A program made the position numbers and the translations under genes. From contig NC_057728.1 in assembly GCF_004010195.1 (NCBI RefSeq), forward strand, positions 53,011,723 through 53,075,722: a stretch of 64,000 bases of DNA, given 5' to 3'. Positions 6,839 through 64,000 of this stretch are shown here, piece by piece. Position 1 is the stretch's first letter, and each line of letters begins with the position of its first letter. Under the pieces are notes generated by a model, which was not told the DNA's origin, did not search any database, and was given only the letters and a program-made list of their open reading frames with translations. Source of the stretch: Chiloscyllium plagiosum (lineage: Eukaryota).

Positions 6839-6973
6839 GGGTAAAAACAATGAGTGCAGATGCTGGAAACCAGATTCTGGATTAATGGTGCTGGAAGAGC
6901 ACAGCAGTTCAGGCAGCATCCAAGGAGCAGCGAAATCGACGAAGGGCTTTTGCCCGAAACCACTAATCCAGAA
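6839..6973. mobile_element. Short PLE-derived insertion with internal inverted repeat
   Basis: 15-bp TSD TCCAAGTTGTAGATG at 6824-6838 and 6974-6988; GATTCTGGATTAATGGTG vs CACTAATCCAGAATC inverted; truncated ribozyme GAAGGGCTTTTGCCCGAAAC. Confidence 0.85.
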
Positions 6974-7423: not shown

Positions 7424-7693
7424 CCCGATCACTTAATCTGAACTATCAACATCTTTTCTCTGTCAGCACCCCAAATCCAGTTATCCACCCCTCTCCCCCT
7501 CCCCCCCCCCCGTCAAACTATAACGTAAATGCTCTCCCTCCACACTTCACTTCAGCTCTGATGAAGAGTCATCTAGACTCAAAACATTAGCTTGCTCTCT
7601 CTCCATGGATGCTGTCTGACCTGCTGTGATCTCTAGTTGTTTTCAGTACAAAGGGAGGTTTCCAACATCTGCAGTAATTTGTTCCTAATCCTA
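7424..7693 (+). mobile_element. PLE pLTR (family 2) with degenerate hammerhead motif
   Basis: CTGATGA-A-GAGTC-ATCTA-GACTC-AAAAC at 7558-7585, then GATGCTGTCTGACCTGCTG..CCAACATCTGCAGT; possible TSD CCTCAAG at 7417-7423 and 7694-7700. Confidence 0.7.
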
Positions 7694-14399: not shown

Positions 14400-14505
14400 C
14401 TAGAAAGAGGAAGAGTCAAATTGGATTCAAAATGTTCACTCTGTTTCTCTCTCCTCATGAATGCTGCAGATCTGCTGAGTTTTTCCAGCACTTCCTGCTT
14501 TTATA
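14400..14505 (+). mobile_element. PLE terminal fragment (family 2), degenerate
   Basis: GAAGAGTCAAATTGGATTCAAAATGTTCACTCTGTTTCTCTCTC..ATGCTGCAGATCTGCTGAGTTTTTCCAGCA. Confidence 0.55.
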
Positions 14506-14754
14506 TAAGATTCTTGACACTTCACCATGTTAAACAAAGTGTAAATTTGGTGACAAGATCCCAAATTTCTTCAGGGAGGAGATGGAGTGGTGTTAGATGG
14601 CTGGACGCCTCTCCTCTAACTGTGCTATTTTGATGTTCACCAAGTCACTAATTCTGGATGCAGGCTGCATAGCCTTACCCCTCTCTAACCTCCTCCAGCC
14701 TATAATCCTACCAGTTTGTGTCTTCTTCCATATTCTGTCTCCCTCACACATCCC

Positions 14755-20584: not shown

Positions 20585-21219
20585 CTACAGAGAGAGGCTG
20601 AATAGACTGGGGCTACTTTCCCTGCAGGGTTGGAGGCTGAGGGGTGGCCTTAGAGAAGTTTACAAAATCATGACGAGCATGGTTAGGGTAAATAGCCAAG
20701 GTCTTTTCCCTAGGGTAGGAATGTCCAAAACTAAAGGGCATAGGTTTAAGGTGAGAGGGGAAAGATTCAAAAAGGGAGCTTTTTCACGCAGAGGGTGTTA
20801 CGTGTATGGAATGGGCTGCCAGAGGAAGTGGTGAAGTCTAGTACATCTATAATATTTAAAAGGCATCAGGATGGGTACATGAATAGGAAGGGTTTAGAGG
20901 GATATGGGGGTCGAGATTAGAGTGGTGCTGGAAAAGCACAGCAGGTCAGGCAGCATCGGAGGAGCAGGAAAATTGATGTTTCGGGCAGAAGCCCTTAATC
21001 AGGAATGAAGGCAGGGAGCCTCCGGGGTGGAGAGATAAATGGGAGGGAGGGTGGGGCTGGGGAGAAGGTAGCCAAGAGTACAATAGGTGGATGGAAGTGG
21101 GGCCAATGCTGGAAAATAGGATTAGATTATTTTGGGATATCTGGTCAGCGTGGATGAGTCGGACTAACGGGTCTGTTTCTGTGCTGTACATCTCTAAAAC
21201 TCTATGACTATGACTCTAT
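20585..21219 (+). mobile_element. CR1/HER1-type LINE 3' end interrupted by a PLE pLTR
   Basis: YRERLNRLGLLSLQGWRLRGGLREVYKIM in ORF 20469-20834; GAGGGATATGGG..GGCCAATGCTGG is split at about 20908/21101; (CTATGA)n tail. Confidence 0.9.
20909..21100 (-). mobile_element. PLE pLTR (family 1) nested in CR1
   Basis: Minus strand CCTGATTAAGGGCTTCTGCCCGAAACATC then GATGCTGCCTGACCTGCTGTGCTTTTCCAGCACCACTCTAATC. Confidence 0.88.
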
Positions 21220-29689: not shown

Positions 29690-29884
29690 AAATTACATGA
29701 CACCAGGTTATCATCCAACAGGGTTTATTTGAAATCACAAGCTTTTGGAGCGGTGCTCCTTCTTCACTTGATGACAGGGCTATGGTTCAAAAGCTTGTGA
29801 TTTCAAATAAACCTGTTGGATTACAACCTAATGTTGTGTGACTTCTGAACTTGTCCAATCCAGTCTAACACCAGCACCTCCACA
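29690..29884. mobile_element. Palindromic PLE-derived insertion (family 3)
   Basis: 19-bp TSD TCTTTGTCAGTAAGGTAAA at 29671-29689 and 29885-29903; arms CCAACAGGGTTTATTTGAAATCACAAGCTTTTG / CAAAAGCTTGTGATTTCAAATAAACCTGTTGG. Confidence 0.85.
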
Positions 29885-33952: not shown

Positions 33953-34166
33953 GGATAAGATTAGAGTGGTGCTGGAAAAGCACAGCAGGTCAGGCAGCAT
34001 CCGAGGGGCAGGAAAATTGACGTTTTGGACAGGAGCCCTTCATTGGCAGGCTCCTGCCCGAAACATCGATTTTCCTGCTCCTCGAATGCTGCCTGACCTG
34101 CTGTGCTTTTCCAGCACCACTCTAATCTTGACTCTGATCTCCAGCACCCACACTCCTCACTTTCGC
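33953..34166. mobile_element. Palindromic PLE-derived insertion (family 1)
   Basis: 17-bp TSD CATCAGGGTAAGGGCTG at 33936-33952 and 34167-34183; about 80-bp inverted arms starting AAGATTAGAGTGGTGCTGGAAAAGCACAGCAGG. Confidence 0.92.
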
Positions 34167-38560: not shown

Positions 38561-40610
38561 AATAACTGTTTACATTGATGGTGTGTTCATGTACAACAGC
38601 TCACTGACTTCTGGTAAGTGTGAAAAGAAGCAACAAGGCATGGGTGAGGTGAGAAGCTCTTGTATTCAGCTCACACACATGATGGGCCAAATGGCTTTCT
38701 TTTGGTCTACAATCATTCCAATGTTTCTTTAGTATGATTCCAATTGCCTAAAGTTATGGATATTATTATGCTTAGTAAGAAGACATTACATGACCACTTT
38801 CAGTCTATAATTTTGAAAGTTGAGTACATACAGGCTATTAAAATGGCTGCTGCAAGTCATGTGGCCTTTGGCACTTCAACCAGAGTAAATAATTTCTTTG
38901 TCTTCCTCGGCAGTTCCTCGGGACCAAGGACGGCATTCCCCCACACCAACGTTGGGTCAAAGTTGATTTCAAGTAAATGTGGGCTTTCTCAGCCACCTTG
39001 GAAATTCACACATCTCTTTATTTAAGAATAGGCCAGCACAAAGTAACTATGGAGTTTCCAGGCTGCCTGTCTTCATGTTTCGTATTGGACAAAATGGCAA
39101 AATGAAACTCAGTTTGTGGCAAACAGAACAAAATGGTCACAATCAAGATCCATTATAACATGTTGGCTTTCCTCATAGAACATGGACTGACTGTACTTCA
39201 GAAATGCTGGCCAACCACACAGCATCAACAACACCCTCATTCCAAAAAAGACCCTGAATTTACAAAAGCCACTTGAGAACAACCATATATTTCTTTGTCA
39301 GCTGTTTGTAGACAGTTCCACCAAAATCATCAGAAAACCCAGCTCAGTTAGTTTATGAGCCAGACTTAGAGCAAGCTGTGAGACATCTGGCATCCAGAGT
39401 ATGGAACCAGTTCTGATTTAAAGGACTCCTGAGAACCAACCTCGTAGCTATTTGACTTCGATAGACTTCACAACTTGCTGTGAACACTTTGCTTTATGAG
39501 ACCCTCCCTTAAATTTTAGATCATTAAATCTGTTTAAAGGACCATAGAGCTGCCACATGGGAGACCAGAGATCATAAATCAGAGACTAAGATAACTATAA
39601 TCTTTTATCTATATCAAATCTTTGTACCTGTGGGTGCCTGAGTGCATGTCTTGTTGTGTTTAGTTCTGGGTAAGCGTGTGATAATAAATGATCTTTTCTA
39701 TTCTTAAATGCACAAAAGCTTGCTGCTGAATTGTTTAATTGGATTTCAGACTCAAACACACAGCTCTTTCTACATAAAACACACACACAGCAGTAAGAGA
39801 GCATATACATTCTGTTCAGGATAAAACTTTCAGCATATTGATATGGCATTACTCCAGGCCTCCTAACGTGGTTGTAACTAAAAATACCCCAGGAGTATTC
39901 AATGAGGGGGAACATCTAGACTGATATTTACCCCTCAACCAGCATCACGAAAAGCAATAGGTCTGGTGATTTATTCTGCTGGCATTAAGTGGTATTTTCC
40001 TATATTGTATTGACTGTGGTTTGATTGGCTGTAACAGGCTTTGGGGTATGCTGAGGTGGTAAAATTTGCTGAGTAAGTTCAAGGCTTTCATTCATAATGA
40101 AACATGGGTTTGAGTCAGAAAGCAAGGTGTGGCCCACACAGTTGGAGACATTAGATCAGCAAAAGGCTGGTGCACACGCCTGGAATCTGGAGCATGAGCT
40201 GGGCTTGATGTCTGCCTATCCCTAATCTGCAGACTCGACTCCAGCATTGTGGTTTGTGATGAGATTGGCAAGGTATCTCAAAAAACAAAGATATTTTTAT
40301 TTTACTTAACCTCTGCATTATGACACAAGGTGGTTTGATAAAACCACCACTTTTGGTTACTTAACAAAGGAATTTTATCAATGCTGTTGAAGAAGGGGGC
40401 TTAGCTCCAATGTGAAAACACTTCATGTATCCCTACTCCTTGCTTCAGGTGGGATCCTCACATCGAATATTGATAGGAGGCTTCACATCTAAAATCTCCC
40501 AGGATTTCTGACAATCTGGTGCAGCCGTCATTTACCGTCTGTTACCCCCCCGGTGCTAATTGGGAAATCACAGGCACATCACTAGCCCTCACTCAGCTGA
40601 TAGGTTCTCA

Positions 40611-41334
40611 CTCTCTGGATTAGTGGTGCTGGAAGAGCACAGCAGTTCAGGCAGCATCCGAGGAGCAGTAAAATCGATGTTTCGGGCAAAAGCCCTTAAT
40701 CAGGAATAAAGGCAGAGAGCCTGAAGCATGGAGAGATAAGGGGGAAATGAGGAAACTGTTGAAGTCCACATTGATGCCCTGGGGTTGAAGTGTTCCGAGG
40801 CGAACAATGAGGCGTTCTTCCGCCAGGCGTCTGGTGGTGAGGGAGCGGTGGTGAAGGAGACACAGGACCTCCATGTCCTCGGCAGAATGGGAGGGGAGTT
40901 GAAGTGTTGGGCCACAGGGCGGTGTGGTTGATTGGTGTGGGTGTCCTGGAGATGTTCCCTAAAGCGCTCTGCTAGGAGGCGTCCAGTCTCTCCAATGTAG
41001 AGGAGACCACATCGGGAGCAACAGATACAATAAATGATATTAGTGGATGTGCAGATAGAACTTTGAAGTATGTGGAAGGCTCCTTTAGGGCCTTGGATGG
41101 AGGTGAGGGAGGAGGTGTGGGCGCAGGTTTTGCAGTTCCTGCGGTGGCAGGAGAAGATGCCAGGATGGGAGGGTGGGTTGTTGGGGTACGTGGATCTGAC
41201 CAGGTAGTCACGGAGGGAATGGTCTTTGCGGAAGGCGGAAAGGGATGAGGAGGGAAATATATCCCTGGTGGTGGGGTCTGTTTGGAGGTAGTGGAAATGT
41301 CGGCTTTTCCAGCATCTGGAGTCATTGCTTTTAC
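40611..41334 (-). mobile_element. Penelope-like element, 5'-truncated, GIY-YIG endonuclease pseudogene plus pLTR
   Basis: Minus-strand frame reads CHRRNCKTCAH..CTSTNIIYCICCSRCGLLYIGETGRLLAERFREH..VAQHFNSP(frameshift)..RLGTLQPQGIN; 14-bp TSD CTGATAGGTTCTCA at 40597-40610 and 41335-41348; inverted 3' tail at about 41308-41334. Confidence 0.95.
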
Positions 41335-41430
41335 CTGATAGGTTCTCATTGTCAAGTGAGAAAGTAAGGGTTTCAAGTTGTTAGCTTGAATATAACAGTA
41401 AAATCAATGTTTTGGGCAAAAGCCCTTTGT

Positions 41431-41730: not shown

Positions 41731-42173
41731 AATAACACCAGCTCCACCACTGTCTGAGAAATCTCTGCTCATCCAATTCTGGCCTGTTGCAAAATCATAA
41801 TTCTAATTATCTGGTTTTGTTGGGCCTTAAGATCTGGAGATTCTGCCTTAAACCTCTATACTTTTCTATCCTGCCTGGACCCTTTAAAATTCTCCTGAAA
41901 GCCTCTCTGTTTGACTTTTGATAATTGCTCTGTTGTCTTATTATGTTGATTAGTATCAAACTTTGTGTGATATGTGCCTGGGAAGTATCTAGGGAGTGAT
42001 TCCTATGAGGTAAAAACAATGACTGCAGATGCTGGAAACCTCTGCCCTCAGACCCCACCCCTCCAACCATAACAAGGACAGAACGCCCCTGGTGCTCACC
42101 TTCCACCCTACCAACCTTCGCATAAACCAAATCATCCGCCGACATTTCCGCCACCTCCAAACAGACCCCACCA

Positions 42174-42564
42174 NNNNNNNNNNNNNNNNNNNNNNNNNNN
42201 NNNNNNNNNNNNNNNNNNNNNNNNNNNNNNNNNNNNNNNNNNNNNNNNNNNNNNNNNNNNNNNNNNNNNNNNNNNNNNNNNNNNNNNNNNNNNNNNNNNN
42301 NNNNNNNNNNNNNNNNNNNNNNNNNNNNNNNNNNNNNNNNNNNNNNNNNNNNNNNNNNNNNNNNNNNNNNNNNNNNNNNNNNNNNNNNNNNNNNNNNNNN
42401 NNNNNNNNNNNNNNNNNNNNNNNNNNNNNNNNNNNNNNNNNNNNNNNNNNNNNNNNNNNNNNNNNNNNNNNNNNNNNNNNNNNNNNNNNNNNNNNNNNNN
42501 NNNNNNNNNNNNNNNNNNNNNNNNNNNNNNNNNNNNNNNNNNNNNNNNNNNNNNNNNNNNNNNN
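42174..42564. other. Assembly gap (391 N)
   Basis: Run of N. Confidence 1.
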
Positions 42565-42743
42565 CTTGTCTGGACTTGTCCTACCTGCCTATCTCCTTTT
42601 CCACCTATCCACTCCACTCTCTCCTCCCTGACCTATCACCTTCATCCCCTCCCTCACTCACCCATTGTACTCTATGCTATTTCTCCCCAACCCCACCCTC
42701 CTCTAGCTTATCTCTCCATGCTTCAGGCTCACTGCCTTTATTC

Positions 42744-42771
42744 CTGATGAAGGGCTTTTGCCTGAAACGTC
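42744..42771 (+). ncRNA. Minimal type I hammerhead ribozyme motif in PLE pLTR
   Basis: CTGATGA-A-GGGC-TTTT-GCCT-GAAAC-GTC: both conserved core boxes, helix II, palindromic ACGT helix III, GUC triplet. Confidence 0.75.
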
Positions 42772-43029
42772 GATTTCGAAGTTCCTTGGATGCTGCCTGA
42801 ACTGCTGTGCTCTTCCAGCACCACTAATCCAGTGATTCCTATTGTCAAGGCACTATATACATGTAAGTTGTTGTTGAAGATATTGTGTTTCTTTTCAAGC
42901 TTTCAGCTTTTAATCTTTATCTTTTCTGATTTTGACATCACACCATCTCGAGTATATACATGCCACTTAATTTGCCAAGCATCAAAGAAAGTCCATTAAC
43001 TAAGCTGAGTAACAATCAATTTACATAAC

Positions 43030-43485
43030 AAAGGATCTTGCATTTCTATAGCACCCGTCACCAGCTCACAACATCCCAAAGTCATGCGCCCCCAGTGGAG
43101 TACTTTTGAAGCATGGTCACTGTTTTGCTGCAGCAAACATGGCAGAACACATGTGCGCAGCAGGATCCCACAAACCAGAATGTGGTCATAACCAGCTAAT
43201 CAGTTTTGCTTTTCAGTGACGTCGGTTTAGGGGCACATATAGGCCTAGGACACAAAGTGGAGTTTCTACTCTCATCTTTGAAACATTACTGTGGGATCTT
43301 TCAAGCCCATTTGAGAAGTCAGACAAGGTTGCTCCTCAATGATTTGTCTGAAATGACACCTACTCAAACAGGAATGCAGCACTGCCTCACTGACAACACC
43401 AGCTCTAGATGTTGTGCTCAAGTTGCTGGAGTGGGGCTTGAACCCATGACCTCCAGTATCAGAGAGAATCACCCACTGAGGCCAC
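43030..43485 (-). mobile_element. Deu-domain SINE, near full length
   Basis: Minus strand: B box GGGTTCAAGCCCCACTCCAG, Deu-like GTCATTTCAGACAAATCATTGAGGAGC..AAAGATCCCACAG, L2-like tail CTATAGAAATGCAAG. Confidence 0.7.
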
Positions 43486-43959
43486 AACCCACATCACAGT
43501 CCAAACTTCCCATGACCTTTTCTTCACCGCCATGCCCGCTGTGCAGAATGCTTCTTATTTGGACCTTCTTATTGTCACGAGAGATTGTTCCACAAGGTGT
43601 GAAAAAAAGAAATCCCATAACCTTTCTTTCGAGAGCAAAGCTGACTTCACAAAGAGACTGGCAGCCAGTGGCAGATGGAGACTGTGAGACACTTTAACCC
43701 TTTGCATGCTCCCTTTTCCTTGCACAGTCAGACAAGCAACAAAAGTGCCCACGCTATACTTTAGAAAAGTGGGAGGTGACATCAGGAGCTAATGGCTTAT
43801 GTCTTCCCAGCAACTGGATTGTTCTGTACAAAGGCAGCCTCTCAGTTCATGTTCATTTGTGTTGCATTGAGTGCTTTACAAAACTAAGGCCGTACATATC
43901 AATGGGGGAAACTTTGTATTCTCTTCCCTCATATTTGTATTAATTTCCCTTCAGGCAAT

Positions 43960-44305
43960 TCTTTGATTTAAAATCCTTGTTTTTAAATCCTCCCTGTAGT
44001 CTCATCCCTCCCAAAGTGTAACCTCCTCTTCATTGACCTGTCTGGCATCCCTGTGCTCCTCCAATTCTAGTCCTTTATGATTTTAATCACTTCACCGTTG
44101 GCAGTCTATGCCCTACACTCTGAAAATCCCTCTTTAAGCCTCTGTTTCTCCACCCTTCTTTCCTCTTTTAAGTGGATCCTTAAAACTGATTTCTTTAACT
44201 ATGCTTAGGGTCACTTGTCTCAATATCTCTTTGCAGAGTTCAGTGCACAACATTGTTTGATAATGTATTTCTGAGGTGCTTTGGGACTGTTGGCCATGTT
44301 AAAGT
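43960..44305 (+). mobile_element. L2 3' remnant
   Basis: TTTAAAATCCTTG..CTGTGCTCCTCCAATTCTAG..GAGGTGCTTTGGGAC. Confidence 0.6.
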
Positions 44306-44483
44306 GTTGCAGCACAGGAGAACGTCATCATGTCCATGTTGGCATGCCTAAGGCACCATACATATACTGCCCTTCCCCAAGCACCTTTACTTCAGGATTT
44401 TAAAGAAATCATTTATGTAGTTGTCAGCAGTGTCCATTCTTATTTGTCCAGAGGGCAGTTGTGAGTTGCCCCACTGTTTTTAT

Positions 44484-44698
44484 TAGAGTGTTGCTGGAAA
44501 AGCACAGCAGGTCAGGCAGCATCCGAGGAGCAGGAAAATTGACGTTTCGGGCAAAAGCCCTTCATCAGGAATCTGATGAAGGGCTTTTGCCTGAGACAAC
44601 AATTTTCCTGCTCCTCGGATGCTGCCTGACCTGCTGTGCTTTTCCAGCACCACTCTAATCTGGACCCTGATTTCCAGCATCTGCAGTCCTCACTTTTG
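44484..44698. mobile_element. Palindromic PLE-derived insertion (family 1) with two divergently oriented hammerhead motifs
   Basis: TSD CCCACTGTTTTTAT at 44470-44483 and 44699-44712; arms about 44482-44568 and 44573-44660 around a 4-nt loop GAAT. Confidence 0.93.
44541..44568 (-). ncRNA. Minimal hammerhead ribozyme motif, intact core
   Basis: Minus strand CTGATGA-A-GGGC-TTTT-GCCC-GAAAC-GTC. Confidence 0.75.
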
Positions 44699-46127
44699 CC
44701 CACTGTTTTTATGTCTAAAGTCACATATAAGCCAGACCAGGCAAGAACAATAGATTCCTTTTCAAAAGGGCATTCATGAACAAGATGTGTATTAGCAACT
44801 GACACTGGTCACGTGGTCACTATTAGGCTGGCCTTACTTTTAAACTGAATTGAAGTTTCACCATCTTCCATATTGGATTTCAACCCCATGTCCTTAAAAC
44901 ATTGACCTGGTGTTCTGGATGATGAGCCAAAAGACATTACCACGATGTCATCATTTCCCTTGAATTTACAGATTGTTTGATAGATTTAGGTAGATCAGAC
45001 AACCATATTTGAATAGATATTTAGAATTTTCTTCATATGAGATGTTAAACCGTGGCCTAATCCGTCCTCTCAGGCAGACATGAAAGGTTTCATGGCTCCT
45101 TAGAGCTCGCTACTGCAGAAAGTTGTTGAGATGAACCACATTGCTGAGGGAAGGTGAAATAAATACATGCTGGAGAAAGGAATGGAATGCCATGTTGATA
45201 TAGCTGGATGAAGTAGATAGAGGGAAGGCTTGTGTGGAATGTAGATCAGTTGAGCTAAGTGGCCTGATTTCTTTGCTGCATGATCTGAGTAGTTCTACGT
45301 AAAAGGGTTCACTATGCCACTGAAAGCATCTTTGGATATAAAAGAGTAATAATGAAAAGTTTCCCGCGCCATAATTTTGAATAGAAATAATAGGTTGAGT
45401 TACTGCCATTTATTATCCATCACACATGCAAATAAACTCAATGGCAATCTTATTAAAGGTCAGTACGTTAATACTGGCATAATATCAGTTATTTTGACAG
45501 TCACAGGACGAGTAATAACTTGTGTTCAACTAAGAGATAAATACTTAGTGAAATATGGAATGATGATTGTCTAGTTTATGTTTAGTGAGCCACTTTGAAG
45601 GATTTGCATCCCTTGACATGGCATCCAATGACATCATTGGATGTGAATTATTAATGCTAACCTTCTGAGTGTTCCCTGCTCTCTGCTACTAAGTGGATGA
45701 CTTCATGCAATTTAATATGGCTCTAGGAAGACAGTGAATGAATGGATTTTGTTGTTTGCAATTCCATTACTCAATTTATCTCACTTTTCAGAAGTAATTA
45801 TAAGTGCTTTCCTTTCATGTAATCCCTTATTAAGTGGCGTCGCTTGCAACCTTCTGAGTCCCCTGTGCCTGGACGAAATAGCTCATGGGTTTACAAATGT
45901 AATAGAAATTCCCAGTTGCAGAGACTTTCATTCACCTCTACAGTTCCCCAAACTACTAATGAATACATATGTTATAACTCTTTAAAAAGTAAAAAGTAAA
46001 CAAACCTATTTTAGGGGATCTGTAACTGTGAGGAGACCAGCACAGTAATGATTGTAAATGTCATGCTGCAAGATCTGACTGGGTTGGTTATACATCATGG
46101 TTTAGCTTCATTTCATACACATCCCAT

Positions 46128-46486: not shown

Positions 46487-46955
46487 ATAGAATGCACACA
46501 GTGTGGAATCAGGCCATTCGGCCCAACAAATCCACACTGACCCTCTGAAGAGTAACCCACCCAAACGCATTCCCCTACCCTATATTTACCCCTGACTAAT
46601 GCCTGATGAAGGGCTTTTGCCCAAAACGTCGATTTTCTTGCTCCTCGGATGCTGCTTGACCTGCTGTGCTTTTCAAGCACCACTCTAATCTTGACTCTGA
46701 TATCCAGCATCTGCAGTCCTCACTTTTGCCTAATGCACCTAACCTACATATCCCTGAACACTATGGGCAACTTAGCATGGCCAATTCACCTAACCTGCAC
46801 ATCTTGGGATTGTGGGAGGAAACCAGAGCACCTGAAGGAAACCTATGTACAGACACAGGGAGAATGTGCAAACTCCACACAGACAGTCACCCAAGGCTGG
46901 AATTGAACCTGCCATCCCTGGCACTGTGAGGCACCACTGAATCACTGTGCCACCC
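46487..46955 (-). mobile_element. HE1-type SINE interrupted by a PLE pLTR
   Basis: HE1 motifs CAGTGTGGAATCAGGCCATTCGGCCC and GCAAACTCCACACAGACAGTC flank the insert. Confidence 0.9.
46603..46729 (+). mobile_element. 127-bp PLE pLTR starting at the hammerhead core
   Basis: TSD CTAATGC at 46596-46602 and 46730-46736; insert begins CTGATGAAGGGCTTTTGCCCAAAACGTC. Confidence 0.9.
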
Positions 46956-53099: not shown

Positions 53100-53275
53100 G
53101 AGCTGAAAATGTGTTGCTGGAAAAGCGCAGCAGGTCAGGCAGCATCCAAGGAACAGGAGAATCGACGTTTTGGGCATAAGCCCTGTTCCTTGGATGCTGC
53201 CTGACCTGCTGCGCTTTTCCAGCAACACATTTTCAGCTCTGATCTCCAGCATCTGCAGCCCTCACTTTCTCCTCG
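53100..53275. mobile_element. Palindromic PLE-derived insertion (family 1 variant)
   Basis: 13-bp TSD AAGGTAATTATTA at 53087-53099 and 53276-53288; near-perfect arms GAGCTGAAAATGTGTTGCTGGAAAAGCGCAGCAGGTCAGGCAGCATCCAAGGAACAGG and its reverse complement. Confidence 0.92.
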
Positions 53276-57369: not shown

Positions 57370-58140
57370 TGTCCTTGTGTATGAATCACAAAAGATTCAT
57401 AGGTGCAGTAAGTAGTTAGGAAAGCAAGTACAATGTAATATTATTGTGAGGGGAGTTGAATTCAAAGTACAAAGGTTATGTTTCATTTTCTCCCCCTAAT
57501 CAACTTGTTCAGAGATGTTATTACACATCCCTAGAGTAAGTGCAACTTGAACCCAGACTTCCTAGTCCAGAGGTATGGACGCTACCGCTGGAGGGCCTAG
57601 CCACCTAGTATTCCCAGGCAGCCTCCTATCCAAGTACTAACCAGGACTGAGTCTGGTTACCTTCTGAAATCAGACGAGGTTGGGATTTTCAGACTAGCAG
57701 GACTGAATACAGCGCAATGGTGAGGCCACATCTGGAAGACTGTGTGCAGAATCAATCTCCTGATTTAAGGAAGGATATAAGTGCATTGGAGGCATCAGAG
57801 TTTTGCCAAACGAATACCTGGAGTGGGCAGGTTATCTTATGAGGAAAGGTTGGACAGGCTAGACTTGTATCTGCTGGAGTATCAATGAGTAAGAGGTGAC
57901 TTGATTGAAACATAAAATCTGGAGGGGTGTTGACAGACTGGATGTGGAGAGGATGTTTCCTCTTATGGGAACGTCTAGAACTTGGGGGGGGGGGGGGGGG
58001 TCACTAATTTAAAATCAGGAACCACCCTTTTAAAACAGAGATCACTCTTTTTTTCTCTCTGTGTATTGGGAATCTTTAGAACTCTCTCATGAAAAGGTGT
58101 TTGAAGCAAAGTCTTTGAAAATTTTGAAGGCAGCGGTGGA
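57370..58140 (+). mobile_element. CR1 LINE remnant split by a SINE
   Basis: AAGGTTATGTTTCA|insert|ATACAGCGCAATGGTGAGGCCACATCTGGAAGAC (YSAMVRPHLED); AGAGGTGACTTGATTGAAACAT. Confidence 0.8.
57487..57705 (-). mobile_element. Chimeric 5S rRNA + tRNA-derived SINE
   Basis: 57594-57705 matches the reverse complement of vertebrate 5S rRNA (TATTCCCAGGC..CCAAGTACTAACCAGG..ATCAGACGAG); 57545-57590 minus strand is tRNA-like CAGCGGTAGCGTCC..GGGTTCAAGT. Confidence 0.8.
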
Positions 58141-63836: not shown

Positions 63837-64000
63837 GACTTCAACAGTTTCCTCATTTCCCCTTCCCCCACCTCACCCCAGTTCCAAACTTCCAGCTCAG
63901 CACTGTCCCCATGACTTGTCCTACCTGCCTATCTTCTTTTCCACCTATCCACTCCACCCTCCTCCCTGACCTTCATCCTCTCCCTCACTCACCTATTGTA
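63837..64000 (+). mobile_element. Penelope-like element 3' region, running off the window end
   Basis: GACTTCAACAGTTTCCTCATTTCCCC (DFNSFLISP, as at 40741-40766 minus) then GACTTGTCCTACCTGCCTATC as at 42573. Confidence 0.9.

Follow-up and report, generated by a model that had tools for sequence, protein, structure and literature searches.

This locus raises the question of whether the hammerhead-like motifs dispersed through a stretch of shark DNA act as self-cleaving ribozymes and, if so, which RNA is cut. The window, that is the whole analysed stretch of 64,000 nucleotides from Chiloscyllium plagiosum, contains the core CTGATGA-A-GGGC-TTTT-GCCY-GAAAC-GTC at 42744-42771 on the plus strand and at 44568-44541 on the minus strand, exactly where a reading made from the letters alone (the sequence-only reading) had placed two cores; the seven decayed copies that it listed at 6.95, 21.0, 34.05, 40.7, 44.6, 46.6 and 53.17 kb were all recovered as well. 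A descriptor of the minimal hammerhead, with fixed catalytic letters and a helix II free in sequence, matched these two cores only in the whole window. Over 140 unselected 10-kb stretches, amounting to 1.34 Mb once gaps are discounted, it produced 67 matches, and five shuffles gave 0-2 each. The search with hammerhead models, which had been proposed as a check, gave a divided outcome, the descriptor recovering both cores and an Rfam scan of the window returning none at E<=1, which is what motifs lacking helix III would be expected to give. The motifs do not represent the canonical type I hammerhead of the Rfam covariance model, with its 6-bp helix I and loop contacts. In the same scan the inverted pairs described below matched microRNA models below threshold because such pairs are hairpins.

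Positions are given hereafter on a scale in which C3 is 0 and the predicted cut falls between +27 and +28. The minimal core of the plus-strand copy extends from C3 to C17 (42744..42771), with the predicted cut after 42771. Its helix II is formed by 42752-42755 and 42760-42763, with a G-U at 10.1-11.1, the palindromic ACGU of helix III occupies 42767-42770, and the helix I strands AUUC (42740-42743) and GAUU (42772-42775), together spanning 42740..42775, provide three pairs and a U-U mismatch. A42740 corresponds to the position where most family copies begin and is a putative transcription start, and a TATA-like box, YTTATCT, which might function as a promoter, lies at 42707..42713 on the same strand. 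The description of both copies as near-intact holds for the catalytic core and fails for the helices, each copy being short of one key pair: the 42744 copy has G10.1-U11.1 (T at 42763) in place of the G-C of the family, C being present in most reads and contigs, and the second intact core (44541..44568, minus strand) has an A at position 1.1, so that the C2.1-G1.1 pair of helix I adjoining the cut is lost. The two intact cores sit on opposite strands and hence cannot dimerise within one RNA, and the plus-strand neighbours at 44573 and 46603 have broken GAAA boxes. Moreover, the 44568 copy is an arm of a head-to-head pair. RNA spanning that pair is predicted to fold into a hairpin of about 85 bp at -160 kcal/mol, in which this copy would be sequestered and helix II has a probability of 0. 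The two window copies are damaged, ordinary leftovers. An upstream strand masking the ribozyme in read-through RNA was also considered; it was clear in the 42744 copy only (0 of 40 shuffles as low) and was not general in 12 representatives.

The assignment of the motifs to a GIY-YIG Penelope-like element is borne out by a match to PF01541 (E 4e-5) in the copy at 40.6-41.3 kb. Long copies elsewhere in the genome (L069, L072 and L078) combine a YIDD reverse transcriptase (RT), a CHRRNCKTC linker and a GIY-YIG domain in a single frame, the N-terminus of the ORF is seen only in broken frames (L077), and the terminal repeat follows the GIY-YIG frame both in the window and in the long copies. A CX2-5CxxC linker marks the Neptune or Nematis clades (PMC8557442). 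By these domain features the Penelope-like element whose 3' ends the window motifs represent is of Neptune type, the linker being common to Nematis. With the endonuclease-bearing Neptune elements of PMC8557442 the family shares the order of RT, CX2-5CxxC linker and C-terminal GIY-YIG, and also the 5' truncation, the inverted copies and a tail of 30-40 bp. Most long copies are broken up by gaps in the assembly, and for this reason none of 20 long candidates yielded a complete element or showed the 5' terminal repeat in position; a first-look search for the endonuclease piece yielded 125,231 candidates genome-wide. Two features of the terminal repeat were tried and rejected: the TGA of CUGAUGA serves as the ORF stop only by frameshift in the 40.7-kb frame, the ORF of better copies ending earlier, and a splice acceptor at the start of helix I like that of D. 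virilis is excluded by the lack of an AG there. Another Penelope-type RT frame, unlike the Neptune-type one, was observed at L064:8042-8899 on the minus strand and is perhaps of the Poseidon kind.

The remaining copies of the window illustrate the forms that these leftovers take. The 42744 core belongs to a 5'-truncated Neptune-type element on the plus strand (42014..42832), which is made up of an inverted tail (42014-42038), an ORF piece (42039-42173), a gap (42174-42564) and the 3' end (42566-42832), and which stops at the first 3' end point without the tail. The 44568 core lies in the head-to-head pair at 44487..44700 (both strands), in which the minus arm (44572-44487) begins at -4 and the plus arm (44573 to about 44700) has a broken core (GAGAC) and a tail. 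A further 5'-truncated element on the minus strand (40597..41330) is frameshifted and retains the CxxxxCxxC linker and the GIY-YIG domain (about 41038-40940); its core at 40703-40676 is broken by changes of G8 to U and G16.2 to A. The same two changes break the core of the minus-strand copy at 20921..21089, which retains upstream sequence, and G12 is changed to A in a short plus-strand copy running from -4 through the tail (46599..46731). Inverted pairs with arms on both strands are present at 33965..34140, with both cores truncated or broken, and at 53111..53228, lacking the CUGA box, and an inverted remnant at 6860..6960 has a whole core in neither arm. The list is completed by a short minus-strand remnant of the terminal repeat (41396..41427) and by a plus-strand copy running off the window end (63837..64000), whose core, about 76 bases beyond the window, is intact with the G-C pair and G1.1. 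Separately, two sequences distantly related to the terminal repeat, in which the core is broken and the helix II-like stem is longer, were noted at 7563-7680 and 14415-14520 (both plus), another hairpin-forming inverted repeat with a microRNA model match below threshold at 29709-29825, and a degenerate 5S rRNA-like copy (45.3 bits) at 57592-57710 on the minus strand.

The idea that the motif has been spread with unusual density through this region did not survive comparison with the rest of the genome. The window has 13 family-like ends, the two distant relatives at 7563 and 14415 included, which over 63.6 kb makes about 204 per Mb, against 239 ends of family 1, intact or not, in the 1.34-Mb sample (178 per Mb), and 31 intact cores per Mb against 33.5 genome-wide; it is thus at genome background. 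Across the 3.56-Gb genome one 30-mer has 15,453 exact matches, the intact degenerate core of family 1 occurs 119,167 times (control 0), and roughly 600,000 family 1 ends in total are obtained by extrapolation. In comparison, about 4,000 minimal hammerheads are given for the coelacanth and 9,000 for Xenopus in PMC4209133, so that the approximately 119,000 cores of one family exceed these vertebrate counts more than tenfold, in counts that differ in methods and assemblies. A second family, F2, with 23,982 intact cores genome-wide, is distinguished by a GGAGC stem, an AGCU helix III and TATAAA at -40 (L182:7260, L170, L152 and others). A third family (L155:522, L123:4926, L170, L207) has a helix II of 6-7 bp and a TATAAATA box about 50 bases upstream of the core, and two of its copies show upstream similarity to the endonuclease.

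Structurally, the earlier claim that the terminal repeat carries minimal type I hammerheads with a palindromic helix III and a weak helix I agrees with the comparison of families. All 11 catalytic letters are retained in 54 of 92 unselected core-spanning copies, and both window copies have the CUGANGA and GAAA boxes, U16.1 and H17. The palindrome of helix III is ACGU in family 1 and AGCU in F2, with no or minimal loop 3, and a bulged base between A9 and 10.1 followed by G10.1-C11.1 characterises the family and the 44568 copy (G-U in the 42744 copy). Variation between subfamilies affects N7 and loop 2. Helix I has four positions with one U-U mismatch, being perfect in subfamily C and F4 and broken in the 44568 copy, and its strands differ across families as AUUC/GAUU, AUUC/GAAU, AGUC/GACU, CAC/GUG and CCA/UGG; helix II ranges from 4 to 7 pairs across four families. 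These paired changes in the helices of four families point to selection on the source elements for the hammerhead fold. Most of these features are those of the minimal hammerheads of Penelope-like elements (PMC4209133), namely the type I form without loop 3, the palindromic 15.2-16.2, the bulge before helix II, G10.1-C11.1, the short helix I (about 4-5 bp in that survey, and 2 bp in D. virilis), and the prevalence of solo truncated copies with some opposite-strand pairs. The helix II of 4 bp here is shorter than the 7-8 bp of the S. mansoni families, and the available text of PMC4209133 names no cartilaginous fish and reports neither a fixed 5' start nor an in vivo record. Non-LTR retrozymes (bioRxiv 10.64898/2026.07.22.740005), in a sample that included one chondrichthyan, likewise have type I hammerheads related to the terminal repeats of Penelope-like elements; however, they form head-to-tail arrays, whereas the copies here are solo or head-to-head, and at least two consecutive head-to-tail units with whole hammerheads, by which retrozymes are recognised, do not occur among the window copies.

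Folding calculations predicted helix II and not helix I, the probability of the latter being at most 0.03 in the 42744 copy, 0 in the 44568 copy and 0.13 in the best subfamily; in the F4 copy L182 helix II was not formed at all, and cofolding of two copies did not yield the ACGU dimer. The weak predicted fold is in keeping with the finding that such motifs have low activity when unaided (PMC4209133) and with the protein dependence seen in Anolis (PMC11167929).

The point at which the element's RNA begins is suggested by the ends of its genomic copies. For this purpose copies were found by the sequence downstream of the cut only (sample L081-L220), and of 242 such copies three duplicates and 52 others (edge or gap contact, low score, short 3' match) were removed to leave 187. 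Their 5' ends accumulate immediately before the core, with 57 of the 187 copies (57 of 148 in a second tally) at -7..-1, including 49 at -5..-2 (p 7e-23 against a uniform distribution), and only three of the 187 (three of 148) at +25..+31 around the cut, which is below the uniform expectation. The 3' ends form two clusters, at +74..+100 (96/187) and +120..+130 (74/187), and in the Anolis element a tail signature has been tied to two internal RT start sites (PMC11167929). In all family 1 subfamilies, which are otherwise diverged, and in F4, a YTTATCT box is found at -35 to -37, 31-33 bases before A(-4). In F2, 12 of 56 5' ends lie at -13..-8 with TATAAA at -40, and in F4, 13 of 28 lie at -6..-1 with the box at -35. 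From this conserved spacing A(-4) is likely to be the transcription start, and the simplest reading of the 5' pile is that RT ran off at the transcription start of uncut RNA. Against this stand F3, which has no pile (one of ten usable ends near the core), and the extra cap-derived G, which is not clearly enriched (G at -5 in 7/27 and at -4 in 4/27).

The same pile might instead reflect an endonuclease preference for ATT or fold-back of the cDNA, with no relation to a transcription start. In Anolis the enzyme shows a preference for 5'-ATT-3' within the terminal repeat of its own element (PMC11167929), the present family has ATT at -4..-2, and an inverted flank is present in 93 of the 187 usable copies, with tiny fold-backs in 8 of 27 others. 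Nevertheless, the pile persists in copies without an inverted flank (30/94), and that of F2 lies at -13..-8, where there is no ATT and TATAAA stands at the same spacing, so that we regard this alternative as rather doubtful. The inverted-flank copies, half of those usable, would form long hairpins in host RNA and are possible substrates for editing or dicing.

Comparable arrangements are known from other Penelope-like elements. The promoter of D. virilis Penelope lies in the terminal repeat, but is TATA-less and has the hammerhead further in (PMC2377424; PMC4209133). The Anolis element PAc (PMC11167929) shares with the present family the two 3' end points, the optional tail, the hammerhead in the terminal repeat and probably uncut RNA as the main template, and differs in clade, being a Poseidon element whereas the one here is Neptune-type.

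Evidence bearing on cleavage itself comes from copies of U6 joined to the terminal repeat. Among the best candidates of a U6 search (48 matches at 46 loci, three of the matches being in L264), four loci were joined to the terminal repeat, all at +28. Genome-wide, a gapped pattern open to any junction between +15 and +44 matched seven times at six loci, 7/7 of these at +28, and the corresponding pattern for junctions from -15 to +14, the range of the main start pile, gave none; these patterns are exact and so miss diverged chimeras. With L237 there are seven loci at +28, with seven different subfamily tails, and one of the seven joined sequences is of the GATTTCGAAG type of the 42744 copy. Ordinary copies start at +28 in 1 of 148 cases. 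There is no microhomology at the junction, since the last base of U6 is U and position +27 of the element is C. Hammerhead cleavage leaves a 5'-OH at the cut bond. RtcB joins the cyclic-phosphate ends of U6 to 5'-OH RNA (PMC6789731), and template switching from a cut end would likewise need a cut. The U6 junctions at +28 thus suggest an indirect record of cleavage in vivo by the ribozyme of this family. They share with the U6/LINE-1 chimeras of PMC6789731, which need a 2',3'-cyclic phosphate and a 5'-OH, a full-length U6 ending in a U tract joined to retroelement RNA; those chimeras involve variable L1 positions, whereas the partner here is Penelope-like and the junction falls at one fixed ribozyme bond. 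In Anolis no RNA ends were found at the cut (PMC11167929), whereas here the U6 junctions would record such ends. The verdict of the sequence-only reading that activity is unproven accordingly stands for the window copies and needs qualification for the family, with its indirect record in vivo. U6 also joins at non-ribozyme points, since in L249 and L253 a full-length U6 is joined inside the Neptune-type endonuclease coding sequence. Apart from the element, a tRNA-like SINE is a frequent partner, with many U6 copies attached close to its start (L235, L243, L247, L252, L255-L262, L265, L268, L274-L276), and in L238 a U6 copy is followed by tRNA-like sequence.

Taken together, we consider it probable that the window motifs are the dead end-pieces left by a Neptune-type Penelope-like element, and that the hammerhead of this element lies at the start of its RNA and, in the germ line, cleaves a minority of the molecules. 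RNA polymerase II would start at A(-4), 31-33 bases past the TATA-like box, so that the first base of the RNA would be the first base of helix I. RT would start inside the tail region, as it does in vitro in the case of the Anolis element (PMC11167929), and would run off the 5' end of uncut RNA to give stubs of 90-130 bases, of which half would have folded back to make inverted pairs. Cleavage after C17 would affect a minority of the RNA and would probably be assisted by the protein of the element or by a partner copy; protein-assisted cleavage is known in vitro for Anolis PAc (PMC11167929) and is no more than a candidate in the Neptune-type element here. The cut would remove a 32-base leader and leave a 5'-OH end, to which RtcB could ligate U6 ahead of reverse transcription (as in PMC6789731), and the window copies would be decaying passengers, unlikely to cut host RNA. 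Against the cleavage step stand the lack of RNA ends at the cut in the RNA run described below (X19) and in Anolis RNA-seq (PMC11167929), the monomer that is not predicted to fold, the absence of the ACGU dimer in cofolding, and the U6 joins of L249 and L253 at internal, non-ribozyme points.

The ribozyme has also been proposed to cut a tandem precursor into unit-length pieces or circles that are the main templates for new copies (PMC4209133). The U6 junctions indeed indicate that +28 ends exist; but only 3 of 187 ordinary copies begin within three bases of the cut and ribozyme mutants of the Anolis element left insertion unaffected in vitro (PMC11167929), which makes such a role unlikely in this family. 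At the other extreme, the motif might have ceased to cut and be kept as a promoter or protein-binding sequence, the +28 ends being produced by a protein nuclease or by pausing of RT at helix II. The weak helix I, the monomer fold that is not predicted, the lack of an RNA end pile in the reads and the low activity that such motifs have in vitro (PMC4209133) would all fit. Yet across four families helices I, II and III vary by paired changes while the catalytic letters are conserved, and 7/7 U6 junctions fall exactly at the hammerhead bond, a position from which ordinary copies hardly ever begin; we consider loss of cutting quite improbable.

A more specific version of the favoured reading, cutting of a minority of the element's RNA at its start, is put forward tentatively, at somewhat less than even likelihood: the hammerhead would form the first 36 bases of a capped mRNA and act as a self-decapping switch, with the U6 chimeras recording its cutting in the germ line. 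The uncut RNA would be translated and copied, giving rise to several hundred thousand stubs from the transcription start, and a cut triggered by protein or dimer would remove the 32-base capped leader to generate RtcB-ligatable 5'-OH RNA. If this is true, the genome would preserve, in its U6 chimeras, a record of germ-line cutting by animal Penelope ribozymes. Whether Penelope hammerheads cut in vivo, and for what purpose, is stated to be open in the available text of PMC4209133, PMC8557442 and PMC11167929. The present family makes the question directly testable, as it provides a predicted start, a predicted cut product, subfamilies with perfect and mismatched helix I and the U6 record. The motif and its host element are of known kinds; no published report of the fixed start, the U6 junctions or the shark counts was found in a search of freely accessible literature.

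There remains the suggestion of the sequence-only reading that intact copies, those of the window included, cut host intronic transcripts. In its favour are the approximately 119,000 intact cores, the presence of family sequence from both strands in polyA RNA, and the under-representation of Xenopus retrozymes in introns (bioRxiv 10.64898/2026.07.22.740005). The sole informative RNA run, X19, consists of fragmented single-cell polyA libraries from one sample; about 2% of it was read, giving 1,563 aligned reads. X20 gave 0 reads, and X1 and X10 are contigs, which carry no information on molecule ends or strand. In X19 there was no site at which many molecules begin or end, the cut included, and the depth of family reads at the cut was equal on both strands (268 against 273 at 42771). 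For the unique flank of the 42744 copy, the same 2% of the run contained 0 reads. With libraries of this kind, and with inverted pairs evening out the strands, these read data are weak evidence. Inserted cores show no excess decay of core letters, with 22 changes against 33.4 expected (p 0.024); since copies were retained only when they aligned through the core, and the effect varies by base, this deficit is not put forward as selection on inserted cores. No host exon was recognised by Pfam among 119 of the 171 non-repeat window frames, a scan in which short exons would be missed. With no host gene in these frames, no RNA ends at the cut and window copies that are damaged or sequestered, the suggestion found no support here, and cutting of host introns to a degree that matters is very unlikely. 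The 119,000 or so intact cores of one family would allow a comparison of strand depletion in introns. In the flank, a scan of 30 out of 233 frames gave one match, BTG, outside the window; this BTG-family ORF with a run of ten histidines (L223:4310-4819, plus strand), about 25 kb left of the window, is the nearest gene seen.
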